This document shows positions 19,765-59,848 of a stretch of 64,000 bases of DNA, in pieces. The DNA is taken from the sequence record OR327750.1; one strand, written 5' to 3'. The notes under the pieces were generated by a model. That model did not search any database. It was not told the origin of the DNA and saw only the letters and a list, made by a program, of their open reading frames with translations. Every line of letters begins with the position of its first letter. The stretch's first letter is position 1. The position numbers and the translations under genes are program-made. Source of the DNA: Escherichia phage KK4.

Positions 19765-20181
19765 TTAAATGTAAATATTTTTGCCGTAATACTTATACCA
19801 GTGTGGCTTCATTAAAATTTTTTCATCGAGTCGTTGTTGACTCAACTTAATAGCTGATTTGCATGGATTATAATCATTTTTCCATTCTACTGGAATATCG
19901 CTGATGTCAGGAACTTCAGTATCTTTTATACTGAACCCGCGTTTTAAGCATTCCGTTATAATGTCCGATTGACGCTTTCGCAAAAATTCTAACTTATCGT
20001 AAAAGAAAGTAACATGACCAGAACCTAAAATAAATTTAGAAGATATTTTAAAATCTTTAACGCGCTTACCGTTTGCCACATGCTTACGAACTATACCAAA
20101 AACACGCGGCAATTCACGGTATTCTGCGATTAAATGTTGATCAGCAAGTTCAGATACTAAAGTCAAATTAATACGAGTCAT
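19765..20181 (-). CDS. denV: endonuclease V (pyrimidine dimer DNA glycosylase)
   Basis: 138 aa; [37 protein letters not shown] matches T4 DenV from memory. Confidence 0.9.
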
Positions 20182-20206
20182 TTTATCCCTCCAAGTAACT
20201 GTGAAT

Positions 20207-20236
20207 ATACTATCACAATTCTAGGAGAAAGTAAAT
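20207..20236 (-). promoter_or_regulatory. early promoter of denV
   Basis: ATTTAC-N18-TAGTAT on minus strand. Confidence 0.5.
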
Positions 20237-20240
20237 AGCT

Positions 20241-20771
<531 letters not shown>

Positions 20772-23054: not shown

Positions 23055-23648
23055 TTATTTCAGAGAATTAATGTATTCCTGAACATCGGCAGAGGTAGTT
23101 TCAACCCCAGAAATATTACCGTTAAAGGTTTCAACTCGAGCAAGGGTATCTTCAATATCAACCTTAGTCAGTGCTGCAATTTCAACTACATCATCAGCAG
23201 TACTAATTCCAAGGGCATTTGCTGCACGAGTTTCACGGATATATTCCAATTTAACCGCAAGTTCTTGACGAGCATCATCTAACTCAACTACTTTCTTGGC
23301 GATTTCAATTCGCATTTCAGCATAACCGTCAGCCTTAGTAGTCAACTGCTCAGCTGTTCGACGATATAGTAAACCGAGTTTAGCATGCATTGTTACATCT
23401 TGGCCTTCGGAAAGAAGTTTACGAATTTCACGCTCTTTTGATTCGGCCTGTCGATTCTTTTCGATAACAAGTTCACGAATACGTTTTTCTTCGTTAATAG
23501 ATTTAACAGAAGCAGTTTTTAGATCTTTAATTTTATCAAGTAGTTTTGCTGCTGCAGCAGTATACTGTTCTTCGACAGATAGATTTTTAGCCATAGCAGA
23601 ACCAAGTTTAGTGCGAATAAACTCAACAATTTTCTTCAGTGTGTTCAT
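23055..23648 (-). CDS. long alpha-helical coiled-coil protein, 197 aa (PspA/IM30-like architecture, tentative)
   Basis: Charged heptad-rich sequence throughout; own early promoter; stem-loop downstream. Confidence 0.5.
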
Positions 23649-23719
23649 AGTATTTCCTTAGGTTAATTGAGATTTAAAATCCGTAGGAGTATAATACTCT
23701 ATCGTCAAATTATAGGCTC

Positions 23720-23749
23720 ATAATATCTCAATCATGAGCCTGCGTAAAC
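23720..23749 (-). promoter_or_regulatory. T4-type early promoter upstream of coiled-coil protein gene
   Basis: GTTTAC-N18-TATTAT; overlaps 8-bp inverted repeat AGGCTCAT/ATGAGCCT. Confidence 0.5.
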
Positions 23750-24013
23750 TTATTTCATATTATTGAAATATTCTTCTGCGATTTCGTCGTTATCATGGTA
23801 AACTTTAGAAGACAGTTTAACATAACCTTCTGCTGTGAACATATTAATCACAACTTTTACAGTATACCACTGACCGTCTTCATTACCCATTACTGCGTAA
23901 GTTTCAAACATCGGATGATCAGGACCGATAACTTTAATATCATTCACTGTACGACCGAAATCTTCTGAAACGCATTTCATAAAGAAGTTGAACAGTTCGC
24001 CGTAATTATCCAT
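23750..24013 (-). CDS. hypothetical protein, 87 aa (start at MDNYGELF after GGAG)
   Basis: Longer ORF-track form reads through the promoter cassette. Confidence 0.45.
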   Translation of the reverse strand: MDNYGELFNFFMKCVSEDFGRTVNDIKVIGPDHPMFETYAVMGNEDGQWYTVKVVINMFTAEGYVKLSSKVYHDNDEIAEEYFNNMK

Positions 24014-24209: not shown

Positions 24210-24234
24210 AAAAAGCCCTATCATTTAGATAGGG
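24210..24234 (-). terminator. rho-independent terminator after IPIII-like gene
   Basis: Hairpin CCCTATC-N5-GATAGGG then U-run on minus strand. Confidence 0.6.
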
Positions 24235-24242
24235 ATTTAAAA

Positions 24243-24806
24243 TTATTTACCTAGTTTACTTATTATAGCTTCTGCAGCAGCTTTTAGCTTAGATGCAGTG
24301 TTAATACGATTTTTAATTTCAGTATACGCATCGCCAAGAACATCAAGGCTATCAGAATAAACACTTACACTATTGCGTTCGCTATTTGAAATAGAACCTT
24401 TAGTTTTGCGGTCAAAATCGGTGTACACGTCTTGAAGATCGCGGGCTGCCTTCTTTGCATCATCCAATGCATCAAGAGCTTTATTCAAAGCATTAACGTA
24501 TTTTTTAGTGTCGAACATATTCTTAGAAATTTTAACAGGTGCGCGTTCAGGAGTAGCTAACACAGATTTAGGAACCTGAGCGCCAGATGCCAATTTCTTA
24601 GAAATTTTGAAAAATGCTTTATTGAATTTATTTTCTTGACTCATTGTAAAAGAACTATTATCGATGTTGTACATTTCAATAGCTTTAGCTTTCCACTTAA
24701 GAAAATCGCCGCGGTCTTTTGGGTCCAATTGGAAGAATACTTTAGTAAGATCTGCTTCAGATGGTAATTTTGCTGCTTCGGTTAAAAATTCGGCATAGGT
24801 TTTCAT
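24243..24806 (-). CDS. internal-protein-like head protein with capsid targeting sequence (IPIII-like), 187 aa
   Basis: N-terminus MKTYAEFLTE resembles T4 IP capsid targeting sequence MKTxxEF...E; Lys/Ala-rich; terminator downstream. Confidence 0.6.
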   Translation of the reverse strand: MKTYAEFLTEAAKLPSEADLTKVFFQLDPKDRGDFLKWKAKAIEMYNIDNSSFTMSQENKFNKAFFKISKKLASGAQVPKSVLATPERAPVKISKNMFDTKKYVNALNKALDALDDAKKAARDLQDVYTDFDRKTKGSISNSERNSVSVYSDSLDVLGDAYTEIKNRINTASKLKAAAEAIISKLGK

Positions 24807-24896
24807 TTAAAATCCTTGAAATAATTTATCGGTTGGTTATTAATTATTTATTACTTTGTTACTATCCGTAACAGCGTTATCCGAGTGATTCAAACT

Positions 24897-24923
24897 AAAA
24901 AGCCCCAACCTTTCGGTCGGGGC
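24897..24923 (-). terminator. rho-independent terminator after IPII-like gene
   Basis: Hairpin GCCCCGACC-gaaa-GGTTGGGGC then UUUUU; identical copy at 25454-25480. Confidence 0.7.
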
Positions 24924-24931
24924 TAAGAATG

Positions 24932-25405
24932 TCATTTGATTTGTTTAGCAGACCAAATGCGGTCTTTAATAATTTTTTGGATGTCTTCAACATACTCAAG
25001 AGAGTGAACATGTGGATTATCTTTGAAACTATAAGCACGGGCTAACTTTTGGCCTTCGGTTTTGATTACTAAAAGCTCTTTAAGGATAGCTTCATATTTA
25101 GCGATAATTCCTTTAACGATATTTTTTTCTTGTGCCGCTTTAGGATCTGCTTTAGGAGCAGGTTTACCCGAAGCCTTTGCAAAAGCAGCGCCAGTAGCAA
25201 CTAAACTTTTCCAGGCCATACTAACTGCATTTCCCGTAAATCCTTCCGCTTTCATGTCGCGTGCAAACTGGAATCGCGATTCATCAGAAGCATCTTTATA
25301 GGAATATTTACCCGCGGCAATGGCAGCTTTTGCAACAGCTTGAATTTCGGTGCTAGATGCTTCATTTAACACCGCTTCATTTAAAAATTGAGTATATGAT
25401 TTCAT
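24932..25405 (-). CDS. internal-protein-like head protein with capsid targeting sequence (IPII-like), 157 aa
   Basis: Starts MKSYTQFLNE; TATAAATA late promoter upstream; ORF-track N-terminal extension rejected because it reads through terminator and promoter. Confidence 0.55.
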   Translation of the reverse strand: MKSYTQFLNEAVLNEASSTEIQAVAKAAIAAGKYSYKDASDESRFQFARDMKAEGFTGNAVSMAWKSLVATGAAFAKASGKPAPKADPKAAQEKNIVKGIIAKYEAILKELLVIKTEGQKLARAYSFKDNPHVHSLEYVEDIQKIIKDRIWSAKQIK

Positions 25406-25443: not shown

Positions 25444-25451
25444 TATTTATA
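25444..25451 (-). promoter_or_regulatory. T4 late promoter motif TATAAATA upstream of IPII-like gene
   Basis: Exact octamer on minus strand ~39 nt upstream of ATG at 25405. Confidence 0.5.
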
Positions 25452-25453
25452 CC

Positions 25454-25480
25454 AAAAAGCCCCAACCTTTCGGTCGGGGC
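25454..25480 (-). terminator. rho-independent terminator at end of tRNA/small-RNA transcription unit
   Basis: Same hairpin and U-run as 24897-24923. Confidence 0.7.
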
Positions 25481-25487
25481 TAAGCCT

Positions 25488-25788
25488 TGCGGCAACCTTG
25501 TCGGGGTTCCACCTGCTAAGGCAAGTGTTTGTACGAAACGCCGGGATTCGAACCCGGTTATTAAGTAGTTGACGCTACTCAATATTTTTAAAAGGCCATA
25601 TCTCGACCATATCCGAACGTTCCGTCAAAAACGCTACTCGGCTTACGGCAAAGATATTTCCTCGAATCGATAATTCGGTGCGCCGTTTCTGCTGTGATAG
25701 TAAAGAGCCAGAACACAGTAAAACTGTGGGAGGAAACTATACTCCAGGGAACATCAGTCCGACGACTTACCGGTAGCGACCCGGTTTC
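25488..25788 (-). ncRNA. structured non-coding region distal to the tRNA cluster; possible small stable RNA(s) with a tRNA-like T-arm
   Basis: No credible ORF; several hairpins; CCGGGTTCGAATCCCGG T-arm-like element at 25541-25557; position equals that of T4 species 1/2 RNAs from memory. Confidence 0.3.
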
Positions 25789-26139
25789 TTAATATTCTTT
25801 TAAAGAATCAATATATTCACGGCGTTTACGCCACAAATCAATTGCTTCATACGCGGATTCAGCATTTCGAATTAGCCGGCATTTATGTAAAGACTTATGA
25901 TTTTGATATTGTGTAGATAACGGAATTGTATCTAAAAGGTCTTTACGATCAAAATATTCGTAACCATCTAAACCAAATGAACGATTTTTGAGAAATTGCC
26001 AATGACCAAATTCGTTTTGAATATAAATATAATCCGCGTGTTGATAAAGTAAATTAATTTCACGAAATGAGATATGTTTTTCATATTCATTGAAGTAAAA
26101 TGTTAAATCATGAACTACTAAATAAACATTACCTTTCAT
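25789..26139 (-). CDS. hypothetical protein, 116 aa, embedded in the tRNA operon
   Basis: ATG after GAGGAAAA, 19 nt downstream of tRNA-Arg. Confidence 0.45.
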   Translation of the reverse strand: MKGNVYLVVHDLTFYFNEYEKHISFREINLLYQHADYIYIQNEFGHWQFLKNRSFGLDGYEYFDRKDLLDTIPLSTQYQNHKSLHKCRLIRNAESAYEAIDLWRKRREYIDSLKEY

Positions 26140-26157: not shown

Positions 26158-26233
26158 TGGTCGAGGCAGTAGGGATCGAACCTACGACCTAGGACTTAGA
26201 AGGTCCTTGCTCTTCCTTCTGAGCTATGCCCCG
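26158..26233 (-). tRNA. tRNA-Arg (anticodon UCU)
   Basis: Manual cloverleaf: 7-bp acceptor, T-loop TTCGATC, anticodon loop CTTCTAA, encoded CCA. Confidence 0.8.
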
Positions 26234-26237
26234 TAAT

Positions 26238-26313
26238 TGGGGTGACCGATGGGAGTCGAACCCATGACTACGAGAATCACAATCTCGAGTTCTACCAACT
26301 GAACTACGGCCAC
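26238..26313 (-). tRNA. tRNA-His (anticodon GUG)
   Basis: Manual cloverleaf: anticodon loop TTGTGAT, discriminator C73, encoded CCA; position -1 is not G. Confidence 0.7.
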
Positions 26314-26426
26314 ATTAATACCTACTCCAACAATCAAGATGTCTTCACACGAAATTAAGAGAAGAGTGATCAGTTCAACCCTATAATCGCGTCAAGTAGA
26401 TATTAATGTGACAGTTGTCACAAATT

Positions 26427-26501
26427 TGGCGGACGTGATAGGATTCGAACCTATAACCAATCGCTTAACAGGCGATCGCTCTGCCATTGAGCTACACATC
26501 C
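26427..26501 (-). tRNA. tRNA-Asn (anticodon GUU)
   Basis: Manual cloverleaf: anticodon loop CTGTTAA, T-loop TTCGAAT, encoded CCA. Confidence 0.75.
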
Positions 26502-26505
26502 AAAT

Positions 26506-26592
26506 TGGTGGGGAGTGATGGAGTCGAACCACCCGAGTCGCAATGACAATGGATTTACAGTCCACACCGCTACCTCTACGGGATAACTCCCC
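26506..26592 (-). tRNA. tRNA-Tyr (anticodon GUA), type II with long variable arm
   Basis: Manual cloverleaf: anticodon loop CTGTAAA, 87 nt, encoded CCA. Confidence 0.7.
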
Positions 26593-26605
26593 TTAATTCT
26601 TAATT

Positions 26606-26680
26606 TGGTGGCCCTGGGTGGAATTGAACCACCATCTGGCGATTATGAGTCGCTTGCTTGAACCTTCCAGCTACAGGGCC
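26606..26680 (-). tRNA. tRNA with CAU anticodon (Met, or Ile2-type AUA reader)
   Basis: Manual cloverleaf: anticodon loop CTCATAA, T-loop TTCAATT, encoded CCA. Confidence 0.7.
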
Positions 26681-26681
26681 T

Positions 26682-26757
26682 TGGTGCTGATTGACGGAAT
26701 CGAACCGCCGACCTTCTCATTACAAGTGAGTTGCTCTACCTACTAAGCTAAATCAGC
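26682..26757 (-). tRNA. tRNA-Thr (anticodon UGU)
   Basis: Manual cloverleaf: anticodon loop CTTGTAA, perfect 7-bp acceptor, encoded CCA. Confidence 0.8.
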
Positions 26758-26762
26758 AAAAC

Positions 26763-26852
26763 TGGCGGAGGCGATAGGATTTGAACCTATGAGTCGCCGG
26801 AGCGACTGCCGGTTTTCAAGACCGGTGCATTAAACCACTCTGCCACGCCTCC
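26763..26852 (-). tRNA. tRNA-Ser (anticodon UGA), type II
   Basis: Manual cloverleaf: anticodon loop CTTGAAA, long variable arm, encoded CCA. Confidence 0.8.
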
Positions 26853-26854
26853 AG

Positions 26855-26928
26855 TCTCCATACAAGGATTTGAACCTTGGACCTCCTGATCCCAAATCAG
26901 GCGCTCTACCAAACTGAGCTACACGGAG
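26855..26928 (-). tRNA. tRNA-Pro (anticodon UGG), CCA not encoded
   Basis: Manual cloverleaf: anticodon loop TTTGGGA; 3-prime end abuts tRNA-Ser by 2 nt (dimeric precursor arrangement as in T4). Confidence 0.8.
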
Positions 26929-26938
26929 TAAATTAAAT

Positions 26939-27012
<74 letters not shown>

Positions 27013-27017
27013 AAATT

Positions 27018-27104
27018 TGGTGCGAGAAGTGGGACTCGAACCCACAAGGAAATCATTCCGCAGCATTTTAAGTGCTGTGCCTTTACCAATTTGACCATTC
27101 TCGC
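27018..27104 (-). tRNA. tRNA-Leu (anticodon UAA), type II
   Basis: Manual cloverleaf: anticodon loop CTTAAAA, long variable arm, encoded CCA. Confidence 0.8.
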
Positions 27105-27105
27105 G

Positions 27106-27178
27106 CTGGGAATAAAGGACTCGAACCTTTGCATCCTGGAATCAAAATCCAGTGCCTTACCAACTTGGCTAATTCCCA
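27106..27178 (-). tRNA. tRNA-Gln (anticodon UUG), CCA not encoded
   Basis: Manual cloverleaf: anticodon loop TTTTGAT; abuts tRNA-Leu (Gln-Leu dimeric arrangement as in T4). Confidence 0.8.
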
Positions 27179-27565: not shown

Positions 27566-27970
27566 TTAACCTTTATCAACAATAGTATGTGTATGGGCAT
27601 TTACGATTTGCCACCAGTCAAAACTATCGCCAAATCGTTTTGATTTATTGTCTTCAATAATTTGGCGTAATTCATCTTCTGTTTCAGCATACGCAATCAA
27701 ATCATCATATCCACCGCAAGGATAGTAATTATCGCCTGCGAACAAAAGAAAATTTACTTTAGATGGGTCTACATAATAATGCTCTTTAGGATATTTAGTT
27801 CCTTTCCAATCAGTTACTTCAACATAACGATAAGAAAATCCATTTTTACTTTCAACCCAACTCCACGCTTCAAAAGGAGTATTAAAAACTCTATCAGGTA
27901 TTAAATTACCTTCAAAATGAGAAGGATTTGCATAATCCCCAGCATAAACATAATATTCGTTAATATTCAT
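27566..27970 (-). CDS. hypothetical protein, 134 aa (aromatic-rich)
   Basis: ATG start; stop-start coupling to upstream ORF. Confidence 0.5.
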   Translation of the reverse strand: MNINEYYVYAGDYANPSHFEGNLIPDRVFNTPFEAWSWVESKNGFSYRYVEVTDWKGTKYPKEHYYVDPSKVNFLLFAGDNYYPCGGYDDLIAYAETEDELRQIIEDNKSKRFGDSFDWWQIVNAHTHTIVDKG

Positions 27971-28156: not shown

Positions 28157-28184
28157 TTTATTCTCCTCGGTAGTTGATAGGGTA

Positions 28185-28214
28185 ATAGTATCACAACTAA
28201 AACCCTATGTAAAC
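28185..28214 (-). promoter_or_regulatory. T4-type early promoter cassette
   Basis: GTTTAC-N18-TACTAT upstream of 61-aa membrane protein ORF. Confidence 0.55.
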
Positions 28215-28232
28215 AACTTTGTGAAATATTTA

Positions 28233-28520
28233 TTACAAAAGATTTTTAGCAATAATCTTGAGATGTGCCGCAGAAATGTGTTTAGCTTTAAACAACGCAG
28301 TTTCTTCAGCAGGAGAGATAATGATTGTAGCACCATCCTTTTTAGCAGACCACCCATCACCTAGGTAAACAGTACCTTTGATTTCTTCGCCATCAACCAA
28401 ACTAATCATTGGTTTACCTTCTCGTCCTTTATTTGCTTTAATAACTTCAGAAGTAAGAGTAGCTTCAGTAATAGTAGAAACCGGGGTAGTTGTAGAAGTA
28501 AATTCTTTGAAAGTTTTCAT
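28233..28520 (-). CDS. ipI: internal protein I (capsid-packaged, injected)
   Basis: 95 aa; MKTFKEF... capsid targeting sequence; matches T4 IPI from memory. Confidence 0.85.
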   Translation of the reverse strand: MKTFKEFTSTTTPVSTITEATLTSEVIKANKGREGKPMISLVDGEEIKGTVYLGDGWSAKKDGATIIISPAEETALFKAKHISAAHLKIIAKNLL

Positions 28521-28550
28521 TTTATTTTCCTAATTAATTTTGATGAGATA

Positions 28551-28580
28551 ATAGTATCACTACCTCATCAACGTGTAAAC
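28551..28580 (-). promoter_or_regulatory. early promoter of ipI
   Basis: GTTTAC-N18-TACTAT ~30 nt upstream of ipI ATG. Confidence 0.55.
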
Positions 28581-28592
28581 AACTTTGTGAAA

Positions 28593-29289
<697 letters not shown>

Positions 29290-57945: not shown

Positions 57946-58370
57946 TGCTTCTGATCCCTGAAACTCATGAATTAGTTCTCGAGAATGTCGAAGCACTTAT
58001 TCCTGAAGCACAGGGTCGCTTTGACGAATTGTCTTCTGCTTTAAATAAAGACGATATAAATACAATTGTCGAGAATATGCTTGATGATGAAACTGATTTA
58101 GCGGTTGCATTAGCTTCTATTAATGAAAATATGCCGTTAAATGAATTCATCGTTAAACATGTTTCCGCTCGTGGTGAAATTACTCGCACTAAAGACCGCA
58201 AAACGCGTGAACGTAATGCATTTCAAACCACTGGGCTGTCTAAAGCAAAACGTAGACAAATTGCTCGTAAAGCTACCAAAACGAAGATTGCCAATCCAGC
58301 AGGTCAATCTCGTGCTCAGCGTAAGCGTAAAAAAGCTCTTAAACGCCGTAAAGCATTAGGATTAAGCTAA
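57945..58370 (+). CDS. 68: prohead core protein gp68
   Basis: 141 aa; basic C-terminus. Confidence 0.85.
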
Positions 58371-59008
58371 TGAATGAACCCCAATTACTAATTGAAACTT
58401 GGGGTCAACCTGGCGAAATTATTGATGGCGTGCCAATGCTTGAATCTCATGATGGAAAAGACTTAGGTTTAAAACCGGGTTTATACATCGAAGGAATATT
58501 CATGCAAGCGGAAGTCGTCAATAGAAATAAACGTCTTTATCCAAAACGCATATTAGAAAAAGCGGTAAAAGACTATATTAATGAGCAAGTTTTAACTAAA
58601 CAAGCTCTCGGAGAATTAAATCATCCTCCACGCGCTAATGTTGACCCGATGCAAGCCGCTATCATTATAGAAGATATGTGGTGGAAAGGAAATGACGTAT
58701 ACGGACGAGCTCGTGTTATTGAAGGTGACCATGGTCCTGGAGATAAATTAGCAGCTAATATTCGTGCCGGATGGATTCCAGGAGTTTCTTCTCGTGGATT
58801 AGGTTCATTGACTGACACAAATAAAGGTTATCGTATCGTAAACGAAGGATTCAAATTAACTGTAGGTGTTGATGCAGTATGGGGTCCAAGTGCTCCAGAT
58901 GCATGGGTAACTCCTAAGGAAATTACAGAATCACAGACGGCGGAAGCCGATACAAGTGCCGATGACGCCTATATGGCTCTCGCAGAGGCCATGAAAAAAG
59001 CGTTATAA
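58370..59008 (+). CDS. 21: prohead core scaffold protein and protease gp21
   Basis: 212 aa. Confidence 0.9.
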   Translation: MNEPQLLIETWGQPGEIIDGVPMLESHDGKDLGLKPGLYIEGIFMQAEVVNRNKRLYPKRILEKAVKDYINEQVLTKQALGELNHPPRANVDPMQAAIIIEDMWWKGNDVYGRARVIEGDHGPGDKLAANIRAGWIPGVSSRGLGSLTDTNKGYRIVNEGFKLTVGVDAVWGPSAPDAWVTPKEITESQTAEADTSADDAYMALAEAMKKAL

Positions 59009-59038: not shown

Positions 59039-59848
59039 ATGCTTAAAGAACAACTGATTGCCGAAGCGCAGAAAATTGATGCTTCCGTTGCTCTTGATAG
59101 TATTTTCGAATCAGTTAATATTTCTCCGGAAGCAAAAGAAACTTTCGGCACTGTATTCGAAGCTACCGTCAAGCAGCACGCCGTTAAATTAGCTGAATCT
59201 CATATCGCTAAAATTGCTGAAAAAGCAGAAGAAGAAGTAGAAAAAAATAAAGAAGAAGCCGAAGAAAAAGCTGAGAAGAAAATCGCTGAGCAAGCTTCTA
59301 AATTCATTGACCATCTTGCAAAAGAATGGCTCGCTGAAAATAAATTAGCAGTTGATAAAGGCATCAAAGCCGAACTGTTTGAATCCATGCTTGGTGGATT
59401 GAAAGAGCTCTTCGTTGAACACAACGTTGTTGTTCCAGAAGAATCAGTTGATGTTGTAGCTGAAATGGAAGAAGAACTGCAAGAACATAAAGAAGAATCA
59501 GCTCGTCTGTTCGAAGAACTCAATAAGCGTGACGCATATATCAATTATGTGCAGCGTGAAGTGGCATTGAGCGAAAGTACTAAAGATCTGACTGAGTCTC
59601 AAAAAGAAAAAGTCTCTGCTCTGGTCGAAGGTATGGATTATTCAGATGCATTCTCAAGTAAATTGAGTGCAATCGTAGAAATGGTGAAGAAATCTAATAA
59701 AGATGAAAGCACTATTACTGAGAGTATAAATACTCCTGATACTGAAGCAGCCGGACTGAATTTCGTCACTGAAGCTGTAGAAGATAAATCTGCACAAGGT
59801 GCAGAAGATATTGTAAGTGTATATGCGAAAGTCGCATCTCGTTTCTAA
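59039..59848 (+). CDS. 22: prohead core scaffolding protein gp22
   Basis: 269 aa, acidic coiled coil. Confidence 0.9.
   Translation: MLKEQLIAEAQKIDASVALDSIFESVNISPEAKETFGTVFEATVKQHAVKLAESHIAKIAEKAEEEVEKNKEEAEEKAEKKIAEQASKFIDHLAKEWLAENKLAVDKGIKAELFESMLGGLKELFVEHNVVVPEESVDVVAEMEEELQEHKEESARLFEELNKRDAYINYVQREVALSESTKDLTESQKEKVSALVEGMDYSDAFSSKLSAIVEMVKKSNKDESTITESINTPDTEAAGLNFVTEAVEDKSAQGAEDIVSVYAKVASRF
59725..59732 (+). promoter_or_regulatory. candidate late promoter of gene 23, inside gene 22
   Basis: TATAAATA ~135 nt upstream of gene 23 ATG. Confidence 0.4.

Follow-up and report, generated by a model that had tools for sequence, protein, structure and literature searches.

Of all phage molecules, internal proteins that are injected along with the DNA meet host immunity first, and the three of T4 have been matched to their targets only recently. 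Ip1, Ip2, and Ip3 of T4 act as inhibitors, each against its own GmrSD type IV restriction enzyme; they give no cross-protection and have the leader alone in common (PMC12373910). The targets of IPII and IPIII are the GmrSD enzymes of ECOR21 and ECOR17 (PMC12373910), and IPI/IPI* (PF11634), which carries the leader, is packaged and injected, and inhibits the GmrSD of E. coli CT596, serves as the model for an injected internal protein. In the T4 record X04567, residues −10 to −1 of IpII and IpIII are annotated as a cleaved leader, and this 10-residue leader is described as letting foreign proteins, e.g., green fluorescent protein (GFP), enter T4 heads (PMC3012670). A 64,000-nt stretch of Escherichia phage KK4 (OR327750.1), referred to here as the window, contains two open reading frames, ORF1 and ORF2, that start with leaders of this kind and lie between the homologs of rnaC and e.8. 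These are probably internal head proteins of the T-even type, and in KK4 they substitute for IPII and IPIII, whose usual site lacks both.

The internal proteins of T-even phages are known to be polymorphic, sharing the leader only; counts of "at least 10" variants (Repoila et al. 1994, as cited in PMC12373910) and "more than 30" (Comeau et al. 2007, as cited in PMC2839356) have been given. Two internal-protein loci are described in the literature, one between 57B and trna.4 and the other between denV and e, each flanked by blocks made of an early promoter and an AT-rich stem-loop. The pair of genes in KK4 has the protein features of this family in a genomic setting of a different kind.

The case for ORF1 and ORF2 begins at their N termini. 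A strict leader pattern, MK[TS][YF]x[EQ]F[LIT]xE, is matched by only two of the 578 Met starts found in six frames over the 64 kb, those of ORF1 and ORF2, and has no match in 200 shuffles of the sequence. A looser pattern adds IPI alone within the window; IPI has the start of the leader (5/10 residues identical to MKTYQEFIAE, the same as ORF2) followed by a longer pro-piece. The cleavage motif LTE↓A at residues 8–10 of ORF1 predicts a cut by gp21 after E10, and in ORF2 the motif L-x-E↓A occurs twice, at residues 8–10 (LNE↓A, predicted cut after E10) and 13–15 (predicted cut after E15). Leader and L-x-E motif are both kept in homologs of merely 24–56% identity, where the leaders read MKTYNEFLMTE, MKSYAEFLTE, MKFKEFLAE, MLEYSEFLKE, MLQYNEFLKE, and MITFNEFLNE. 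The DNA of these distant relatives is unmatched, so the leader is conserved at the level of protein. Between ORF1 and ORF2 themselves the leader DNA shows 74% identity over 42 nt (repeat D2).

A preliminary description of this DNA had proposed the two minus-strand genes as capsid-targeted internal proteins of the T4 type at a non-T4 site. That proposal has held up, with the leader, the L-x-E motif, the late-promoter motifs, the size and charge of the products, the head-assembly machinery of the phage, and the detection of the fD1 protein g140 in virions all pointing the same way. The alignment to IPII and IPIII that it recommended gave a divided answer: The leaders match, but BLASTP aligns the first 11–12 residues only, and homology to IPII/IPIII was rejected for this reason.

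The predicted mature proteins are basic and lysine rich, as is seen from ORF1 (177 amino acids, 19.6 kDa, isoelectric point [pI] 9.54) and ORF2 (~142 amino acids, 15.5 kDa, pI 9.59) alongside T4 IPIII (20.4 kDa, pI 9.65) and T4 IPII (9.8 kDa, pI 9.56). Sequence searches of Pfam, NCBIfam, and the PDB returned nothing above threshold for either protein, and in PHROGs both fall into phrog_2280, a group of unknown function. Both families are confined to T4-like phages. Among 5.8 billion proteins, the ORF2 family makes up 13 clusters (90% identity), and among 1.84 billion representatives, the ORF1 family makes up essentially one full-length cluster plus one 31%-identical relative. AlphaFold2 models have a mean predicted local distance difference test (pLDDT) score of 72.6 for ORF2 and 64.3 for ORF1 and suggest a common plan, in which the leader is disordered, a small helical domain comes next, and a disordered linker rich in Pro/Lys/Ala connects it to a long C-terminal helical hairpin. 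Foldseek comparison of the models with the PDB gave nothing below E = 0.5, and comparison with BFVD gave mainly their own relatives (RB69ORF149c, a protein of fHe-Yen9-01, and, weakly, a protein of Serratia phage PS2), the other matches being not significant. At pLDDT values of 64–73, such predicted helical models carry little fold information.

The relationship between the two proteins is less clear than their shared plan might suggest. Compared by hhalign, ORF1 and ORF2 score a probability of 91.5% if the leader is included and 8.6% if it is left off. An ORF1-like gene of Yersinia phage fHe-Yen9-01 (24% identity, E = 1e-4) adjoins an ORF2-like gene, and the pair lies downstream of a single TATAAATA box in the order opposite to that of KK4. 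The architecture in common and this adjacency might point to paralogy. In relatives of ORF2 from Klebsiella and Yersinia phages, the N-terminal domain is conserved and the C-terminal part has been replaced.

Evidence from virions comes from Yersinia phage fD1 (phiD1), which has an ORF2-only cassette whose product, g140, is 98% identical to ORF2. The g140 protein was found in purified virions using LC-MS/MS (liquid chromatography with tandem mass spectrometry) and scored as particle-associated (PMC8309999, Table S3), a score that called for two or more peptides and for spectral counts averaging 2 or higher.

The layout of the locus suggests how the genes might have arrived. In T4, only the e.8 promoter region and one terminator copy lie between e.8 and rnaC; aligned with T4, the ORF1–ORF2 pair is a ~1.24-kb insertion exactly at the rnaC terminator. 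A pattern search finds a 28-nt hairpin repeated exactly at 24897–24924 and 25454–25481, with identity that runs to 31 nt in a repeat search. The window holds no third copy, even allowing three mismatches, and 100 shuffles gave no match. The folding energy of copies A and B is −20.3 kcal/mol apiece, and each hairpin has a stem of 10 bp with a loop of GAAA and a tail of U5. The hairpin had been described as following each ORF. The identical pair does exist, but because transcription runs from high to low coordinates, the copy at 25454–25484 lies upstream of ORF2; the pair brackets ORF2, and a different hairpin, terminator C, follows ORF1. Terminator C shares its 3′ portion (GGGCUUUUUGGUAU; GGGCTTTTTGGTAT) with copy A, and this portion passes into T4-like flank, so that short direct repeats bound the whole block. 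Read along the coding strand, the order is rnaC, terminator A, GG, TATAAATA, 38 nt, ORF2, and terminator B, and then 44 nt, AATAAATA, 38 nt, ORF1, terminator C, T4-like flank, and e.8.

Each gene has a candidate late promoter. The TATAAATA box at ORF2 also appears among the predicted late promoters annotated for phage fPS-90. Among the IMG/VR loci around ORF2 homologs (L003–L012), it is kept upstream of the homolog in L003–L007 and L010 and replaced by AATAAATA in L008 and L009. The AATAAATA octamer has only three sites on that strand of the 64 kb, and its placement makes it likely to be ORF1's own late promoter. ORF1 needs a promoter of its own because a −20 kcal/mol terminator lies between ORF2 and ORF1.

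An intermediate state is found in L005 and L006, where the terminator, TATAAATA, ORF2, and a second terminator are followed by T4-like flank, without ORF1. Read as a series, T4 looks like the solo-terminator state (empty or deleted), the ORF2-only loci have the minimal cassette, and the KK4 window has two cassettes. In L006, the genes 57B, trna.4, e.8, and e.6 are 99–100% identical to those of the window, and ORF2 is only 79% identical; in L009, ORF1 is 97% and ORF2 75% identical to the window. In such comparisons, the ORF1 and ORF2 alleles move without regard to their surroundings.

The same loci display wider variation in leader-bearing genes. L003–L012 hold at least 12 different leader-bearing ORFs (52–189 amino acids) over three sites, ipI, rnaC/e.8, and e/denV, in combinations that vary by genome. 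At ORF1 and ORF2, L003 does not differ from the window, yet its ipI site holds another protein and a further one follows e. A 94-amino acid sequence on a 2.9-kb Logan contig (P0042) is a chimera in which the N-terminal half resembles the trna.3-like protein (window 27566–27970) and a short "DN" match forms the junction with the C-terminal ~30 residues of ORF2; the chimera could be either a natural recombinant or an assembly artifact.

From these features we infer targeting, cleavage, injection, packaging of ORF1, and an anti-defense target, in the following order. Going by the sequence motifs, each gene would be transcribed late from its own promoter box, and the N-terminal leader would recruit the products into the gp22 scaffolding core of the prohead. 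The genes for gp21, gp22, gp67, and gp23 lie at 57.7–61.4 kb of the window, so the prohead protease and the scaffold are encoded by the same phage. The gp21 protease would then cut the leader after Glu10 in ORF1 (LTE↓A) or after Glu10 or Glu15 in ORF2 (LNE↓A). A g140 protein processed in this way is expected to have its N terminus at Ala11 or Ala16, giving the peptides AVLNEASSTEIQAVAK or ASSTEIQAVAK. The basic, lysine-rich mature protein would be retained in the head with the DNA, as the one proteomic detection of an ORF2 homolog suggests. By extension from T4, it would be injected together with the DNA and would block a host defense acting on incoming glucosyl-hydroxymethylcytosine (glucosyl-hmC) DNA, most plausibly a GmrSD-family variant. 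In layout, ORF1 and ORF2 are self-contained promoter–gene–terminator cassettes, which recombination between terminator repeats would insert, swap, or delete.

Several observations weigh against this explanation. ORF1 is without a canonical TATAAATA box. The virion evidence comes from a homolog of ORF2 only, packaging of ORF1 is presumed, and g140 itself could be carry-over, because the 113 fD1 proteins scored as particle-associated include nonstructural ones (PMC8309999). Pfam, BLASTP, and PDB comparisons found no sequence or fold similarity of ORF1 or ORF2 beyond the leader to IPI*, IPII, IPIII, or solved structures, so an anti-restriction role is argued from analogy alone; this lack of similarity is no argument against GmrSD inhibition, because the known inhibitors are mutually unrelated. 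When ip1–10 were screened against five additional active GmrSD groups, no reproducible new match emerged (PMC12373910), and being an internal protein is therefore no guarantee of a GmrSD target. Truncated or frameshifted alleles of the ORF1/ORF2 genes also occur (P0013, P0021, and P0053, with products of 106, 97, and 86 amino acids), and the phage records OE5505 and G4500 give two-piece tblastn matches to ORF1/ORF2 alleles. The existence of truncated alleles means that ORF1 and ORF2 are dispensable, at least on laboratory hosts, as is expected of accessory counter-defense genes. With these points taken together, ORF1 and ORF2 are both very probably packaged internal proteins. Whether they act as anti-defense effectors, as the analogy with T4 would have it, is an evenly balanced question, and a GmrSD-type enzyme as the target, argued from the same analogy, is a tentative and somewhat doubtful suggestion.

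The alternatives divide over what the packaged proteins would do. One rather improbable view is that their role is physical, with lysine-rich proteins serving as counter-ions in condensing, organizing, or ejecting the DNA; this overlaps with a defense role, and the two could coexist. A predicted mature pI of ~9.5, the richness in lysine, and disordered Pro/Lys/Ala linkers between helical domains would suit such a role, and the proteins that ORF1 and ORF2 stand in for, IPII and IPIII, are abundant, basic, and comparable to them in size and charge. In T4, contacts of internal proteins with DNA phosphates were seen for lysines only (PMC3012670). However, IPII and IPIII were themselves long viewed as basic fillers, and each inhibits a specific GmrSD enzyme (PMC12373910). 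The replacement of alleles amid near-identical flanks also suggests selection on specificity and not on bulk charge, and the AlphaFold2 models of both proteins have folded helical domains besides the linker.

A similarly improbable view keeps the injection and changes the target, to another early-acting defense, superinfecting phages, or host physiology, i.e., something other than type IV restriction. The ip1–10 screen, which produced no inhibitor–target pair for the five additional active GmrSD groups (PMC12373910), leaves room for this, and so do the two-domain helical architecture, which is unlike IPI*, and the presence of ORF2 relatives in Klebsiella and Yersinia phages. Still, all T-even internal proteins with a known target (Ip1, Ip2, and Ip3) act on GmrSD (PMC12373910), and nothing in this analysis indicates any non-GmrSD target. 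The weakest alternative makes the leader similarity a by-product of recombination at shared gene starts, with ORF1 and ORF2 as unpackaged late cytoplasmic proteins; the repeated leader DNA and ribosome-binding region (74% identity) could serve as a recombination linker, the database annotations all read "hypothetical protein," and the fD1 particle-associated list is long and includes nonstructural proteins, but retention of the leader as protein in homologs of 24–56% identity with unmatched DNA, the L-x-E cleavage motif kept alongside it, the finding of g140 in fD1 virions, and the described packaging of GFP in T4 by means of the leader (PMC3012670) make this very improbable. T-even-type internal proteins therefore stay the preferred identity for ORF1 and ORF2, and the features on which this assignment draws are collected in Table 1.

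Table 1. Positions in the 64,000-nt KK4 window of ORF1, ORF2, and the features discussed with them
Feature	Position	Strand	Remarks
ORF1	24243..24806	−	187 amino acids; candidate internal protein; MKTYAEFLTEAAKL...; starts MKTYAEFLTE
ORF1 leader, codons 1–10	24777..24806	−	7/10 residues identical to the T4 IPII/IPIII leader MKTYQEFIAE
ORF2	24932..25405	−	157 amino acids; candidate internal protein; MKSYTQFLNEAVLNEASS...; starts MKSYTQFLNE
ORF2 leader, codons 1–15	25361..25405	−	MKSYTQFLNE-AVLNE; 5/10 residues identical to the T4 leader; second L-x-E site
Terminator copy A	25454..25484	−	Intrinsic terminator that follows rnaC in T4; upstream of ORF2; upstream boundary of the insertion
Terminator copy B	24897..24927	−	Identical to A; 4 nt past the ORF2 stop codon; terminator of ORF2, separating it from ORF1
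Terminator C	24216..24234	−	3′ of ORF1; different, weaker stem, −10.5 kcal/mol
Late-promoter box TATAAATA	25444..25451	−	38 nt before the ORF2 ATG; 2 nt past the U-run of the rnaC terminator
Late-box variant AATAAATA	24845..24852	−	One base off; exactly 38 nt before the ORF1 ATG
rnaC homolog	25485..25623	−	Ends approximate, from alignment to T4 rnaC; upstream neighbor of the insertion
e.8 homolog	23750..24013	−	99% identity to T4 e.8; downstream neighbor of the insertion
ipI	28233..28520	−	Third leader-bearing protein, at the classical ipI site; PF11634 match, 2e-53
Empty classical internal-protein site	20182..20240		59-nt denV–e gap; holds ipII and ipIII in T4
gp21 prohead serine protease	58370..59008	+	PF03420, 1.5e-111; enzyme expected to remove the leader
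gp22 scaffolding core protein	59039..59848	+	PF25623, 1.3e-89; structure that recruits leader-bearing proteins

The KK4 window is part of a Tequatrovirus (T4-like) genome, and the genes around ORF1 and ORF2 are on the minus strand. The 9.8-kb stretch around them is 99.7% identical to Escherichia phage GADU22, and at least 80% of it is covered in ~200 records. The T4 reference order is denV-ipII-ipIII-e-nudE-e.2...e.8-rnaC-rnaD-tRNAs-trna.2-4-ipI-57B-57A-1; in the window, denV (19765–20181) adjoins e (20241–20735), with neither ipII nor ipIII in the place that they have in T4. ORF2 is taken to start with ATG at 25405, for which AGGAAA serves as the ribosome-binding site; a 216-amino acid version started at TTG was rejected, as it would run through the terminator and rnaC. 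Plus-strand ORFs inside ORF1 and ORF2 are short only, at most 79 amino acids. For e.8, the match to phrog_2678 spans residues 41–127 of a longer TTG-started ORF (127 amino acids), starting from Met41. A 141-amino acid ORF at the position of gp68 has no Pfam match.

Other features are seen nearby. T4 e.7 is absent (23649–23749) between e.6 (23055–23648) and e.8 (23750–24013). On the minus strand, homologs of rnaC and rnaD lie at ~25485–25790; the rnaC stretch is almost identical to T4, and neither homolog matches an Rfam family, even at E = 0.01. A 116-amino acid ORF at 25789–26139 of the minus strand, between rnaD and tRNA-Arg, stands where T4 has no gene; it has no Pfam match, and homologs at 70–91% identity are found in L003, L005, L006, and L009. 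The tRNA cluster (26158–27178, minus strand) comprises 11 genes, those for Arg, His, Asn, Tyr, Met, Thr, Ser, Pro, Gly, Leu, and Gln, versus 8 in T4, with extra His, Asn, Tyr, and Met, without Ile, and with the homing endonuclease gene segB absent.

Homologs of ORF2 were found in 511 and of ORF1 in 164 of 50,697 phage records, and 485 of the 511 records with ORF2 are at 60% identity or more. By record count the classical internal proteins are found in 285 (IPI), 261 (IPIII), and 198 (IPII) records, figures that compare only approximately with those for ORF1 and ORF2 given the thresholds used (E ≤ 1e-10 for the classical proteins and E ≤ 1e-3 for ORF1 and ORF2). Two aspects of the preliminary description give way to these data. 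The arrangement is not the unusual one it was taken for, given the number of records with ORF2, and the proteins are not "extra," since the leader-bearing total is three, like that of T4, with the pair standing in for the missing IPII and IPIII. Its reading of the surrounding sites was sound, both for IPI, which is 99% identical to T4 IPI, and for a denV gene that abuts e.

Carriers include many therapeutic and reference coliphages, among them RB14, RB32, AR1, wV7, PP01, HP3, and BASEL phages. In every annotated record listed, ORF1 and ORF2 are each called "hypothetical protein," including those of RB14, RB32, and the curated BASEL genomes. The genome paper of UFV13 noted the absence of IpII and left genes of the ORF1/ORF2 type unrecognized. 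Recognizing the two genes corrects this annotation, supplies candidates for orphan defense systems, and widens the published picture from two internal-protein loci to three, the third with another kind of flanking recombination element. New are the two unrelated, widespread candidates, the annotation gap, and the rnaC/e.8 site, which the literature consulted does not list; the kind of protein and its logic were known already. A bolder possibility is that rnaC/e.8 is a third internal-protein locus with its own shuffling element and that ORF1 and ORF2 are injected inhibitors of defenses without a known phage counter-measure. Taken as a whole this is speculative and rather unlikely, and if it is true, the five T-even-restricting GmrSD groups that resisted ip1–10 (PMC12373910) are candidate targets.

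The closest described relatives of the cassette layout are the PeSL (promoter-early stem-loop) cassettes of T4-like phages (Arbiol et al. 2010; Comeau et al. 2014), in which a gene lies between direct promoter/terminator repeats, as ORF2 does. PeSL-like traits at ORF2 include the 31-nt terminator repeat on each side, the solo repeat at the empty T4 site, and alleles that swap independently of the flanks. The repeats themselves are different: In PeSL the unit is a sigma-70-like early promoter with a stem-loop, and in KK4 the intrinsic terminator of rnaC is joined to a late promoter. Judged by this composition, the terminator/late-box cassette of KK4 is an analog of PeSL and not a member. The window also has blocks of the classical kind, at ipI, where an early-promoter block (TTTCACAAAGTTGTTTACA ... 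GATACTAT) plus stem-loop is directly repeated on either side of the gene (28160–28232 and 28521–28600, minus strand). These are like the PeSL element of the classical internal-protein loci and also flank many of the leader-bearing ORFs in L003–L012 and PST.

IPI combines a pro-piece of 19 residues with a compact beta-sheet fold. ORF1 and ORF2, by comparison, are predicted to be all-helical two-domain proteins and have no match to PF11634. The likeness to T4 IPII and IPIII is closer and includes a 10-residue leader, MKTY.EF..E, ending in L/I-x-E↓A, small basic mature proteins, and nonessential accessory genes that vary among related phages; IPII and IPIII are missing from KK4 exactly where ORF1 and ORF2 are present. 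The sites are different, rnaC/e.8 for ORF1 and ORF2 and denV/e for IPII and IPIII, as is the regulation. The ip genes of T4 and PST have early-type blocks, which before ipII and ipIII consist of an early-type promoter and AT-rich stem-loops, and TATAAATA does not occur within 120 nt of these genes; at ORF2 there are instead a late box and intrinsic terminators that are GC rich.

Among the polymorphic internal proteins (Ip4–Ip10 and PST IpIV–IpVI), unrelated ORFs carry a common leader, just as with ORF1 and ORF2, and the genes have conserved regulatory blocks on both sides that are thought to mediate shuffling. At 157 amino acids, PST IpIV is as long as ORF2, but the two are unrelated, and it was rejected as the counterpart of ORF2. 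Ip4–Ip10 (Repoila et al. 1994) are placed in the two classical loci by the description cited for them, and it is this described location only that sets ORF1 and ORF2 apart; one of the two may already have a name in that series. The third site, rnaC/e.8, with its late box and strong GC-rich terminator, is outside both described loci, a position that is a difference from the known members and not an exclusion from the internal-protein class. ORF1 and ORF2 are probably further members of this known and highly variable family, and the logic of the proteins is the ordinary one.

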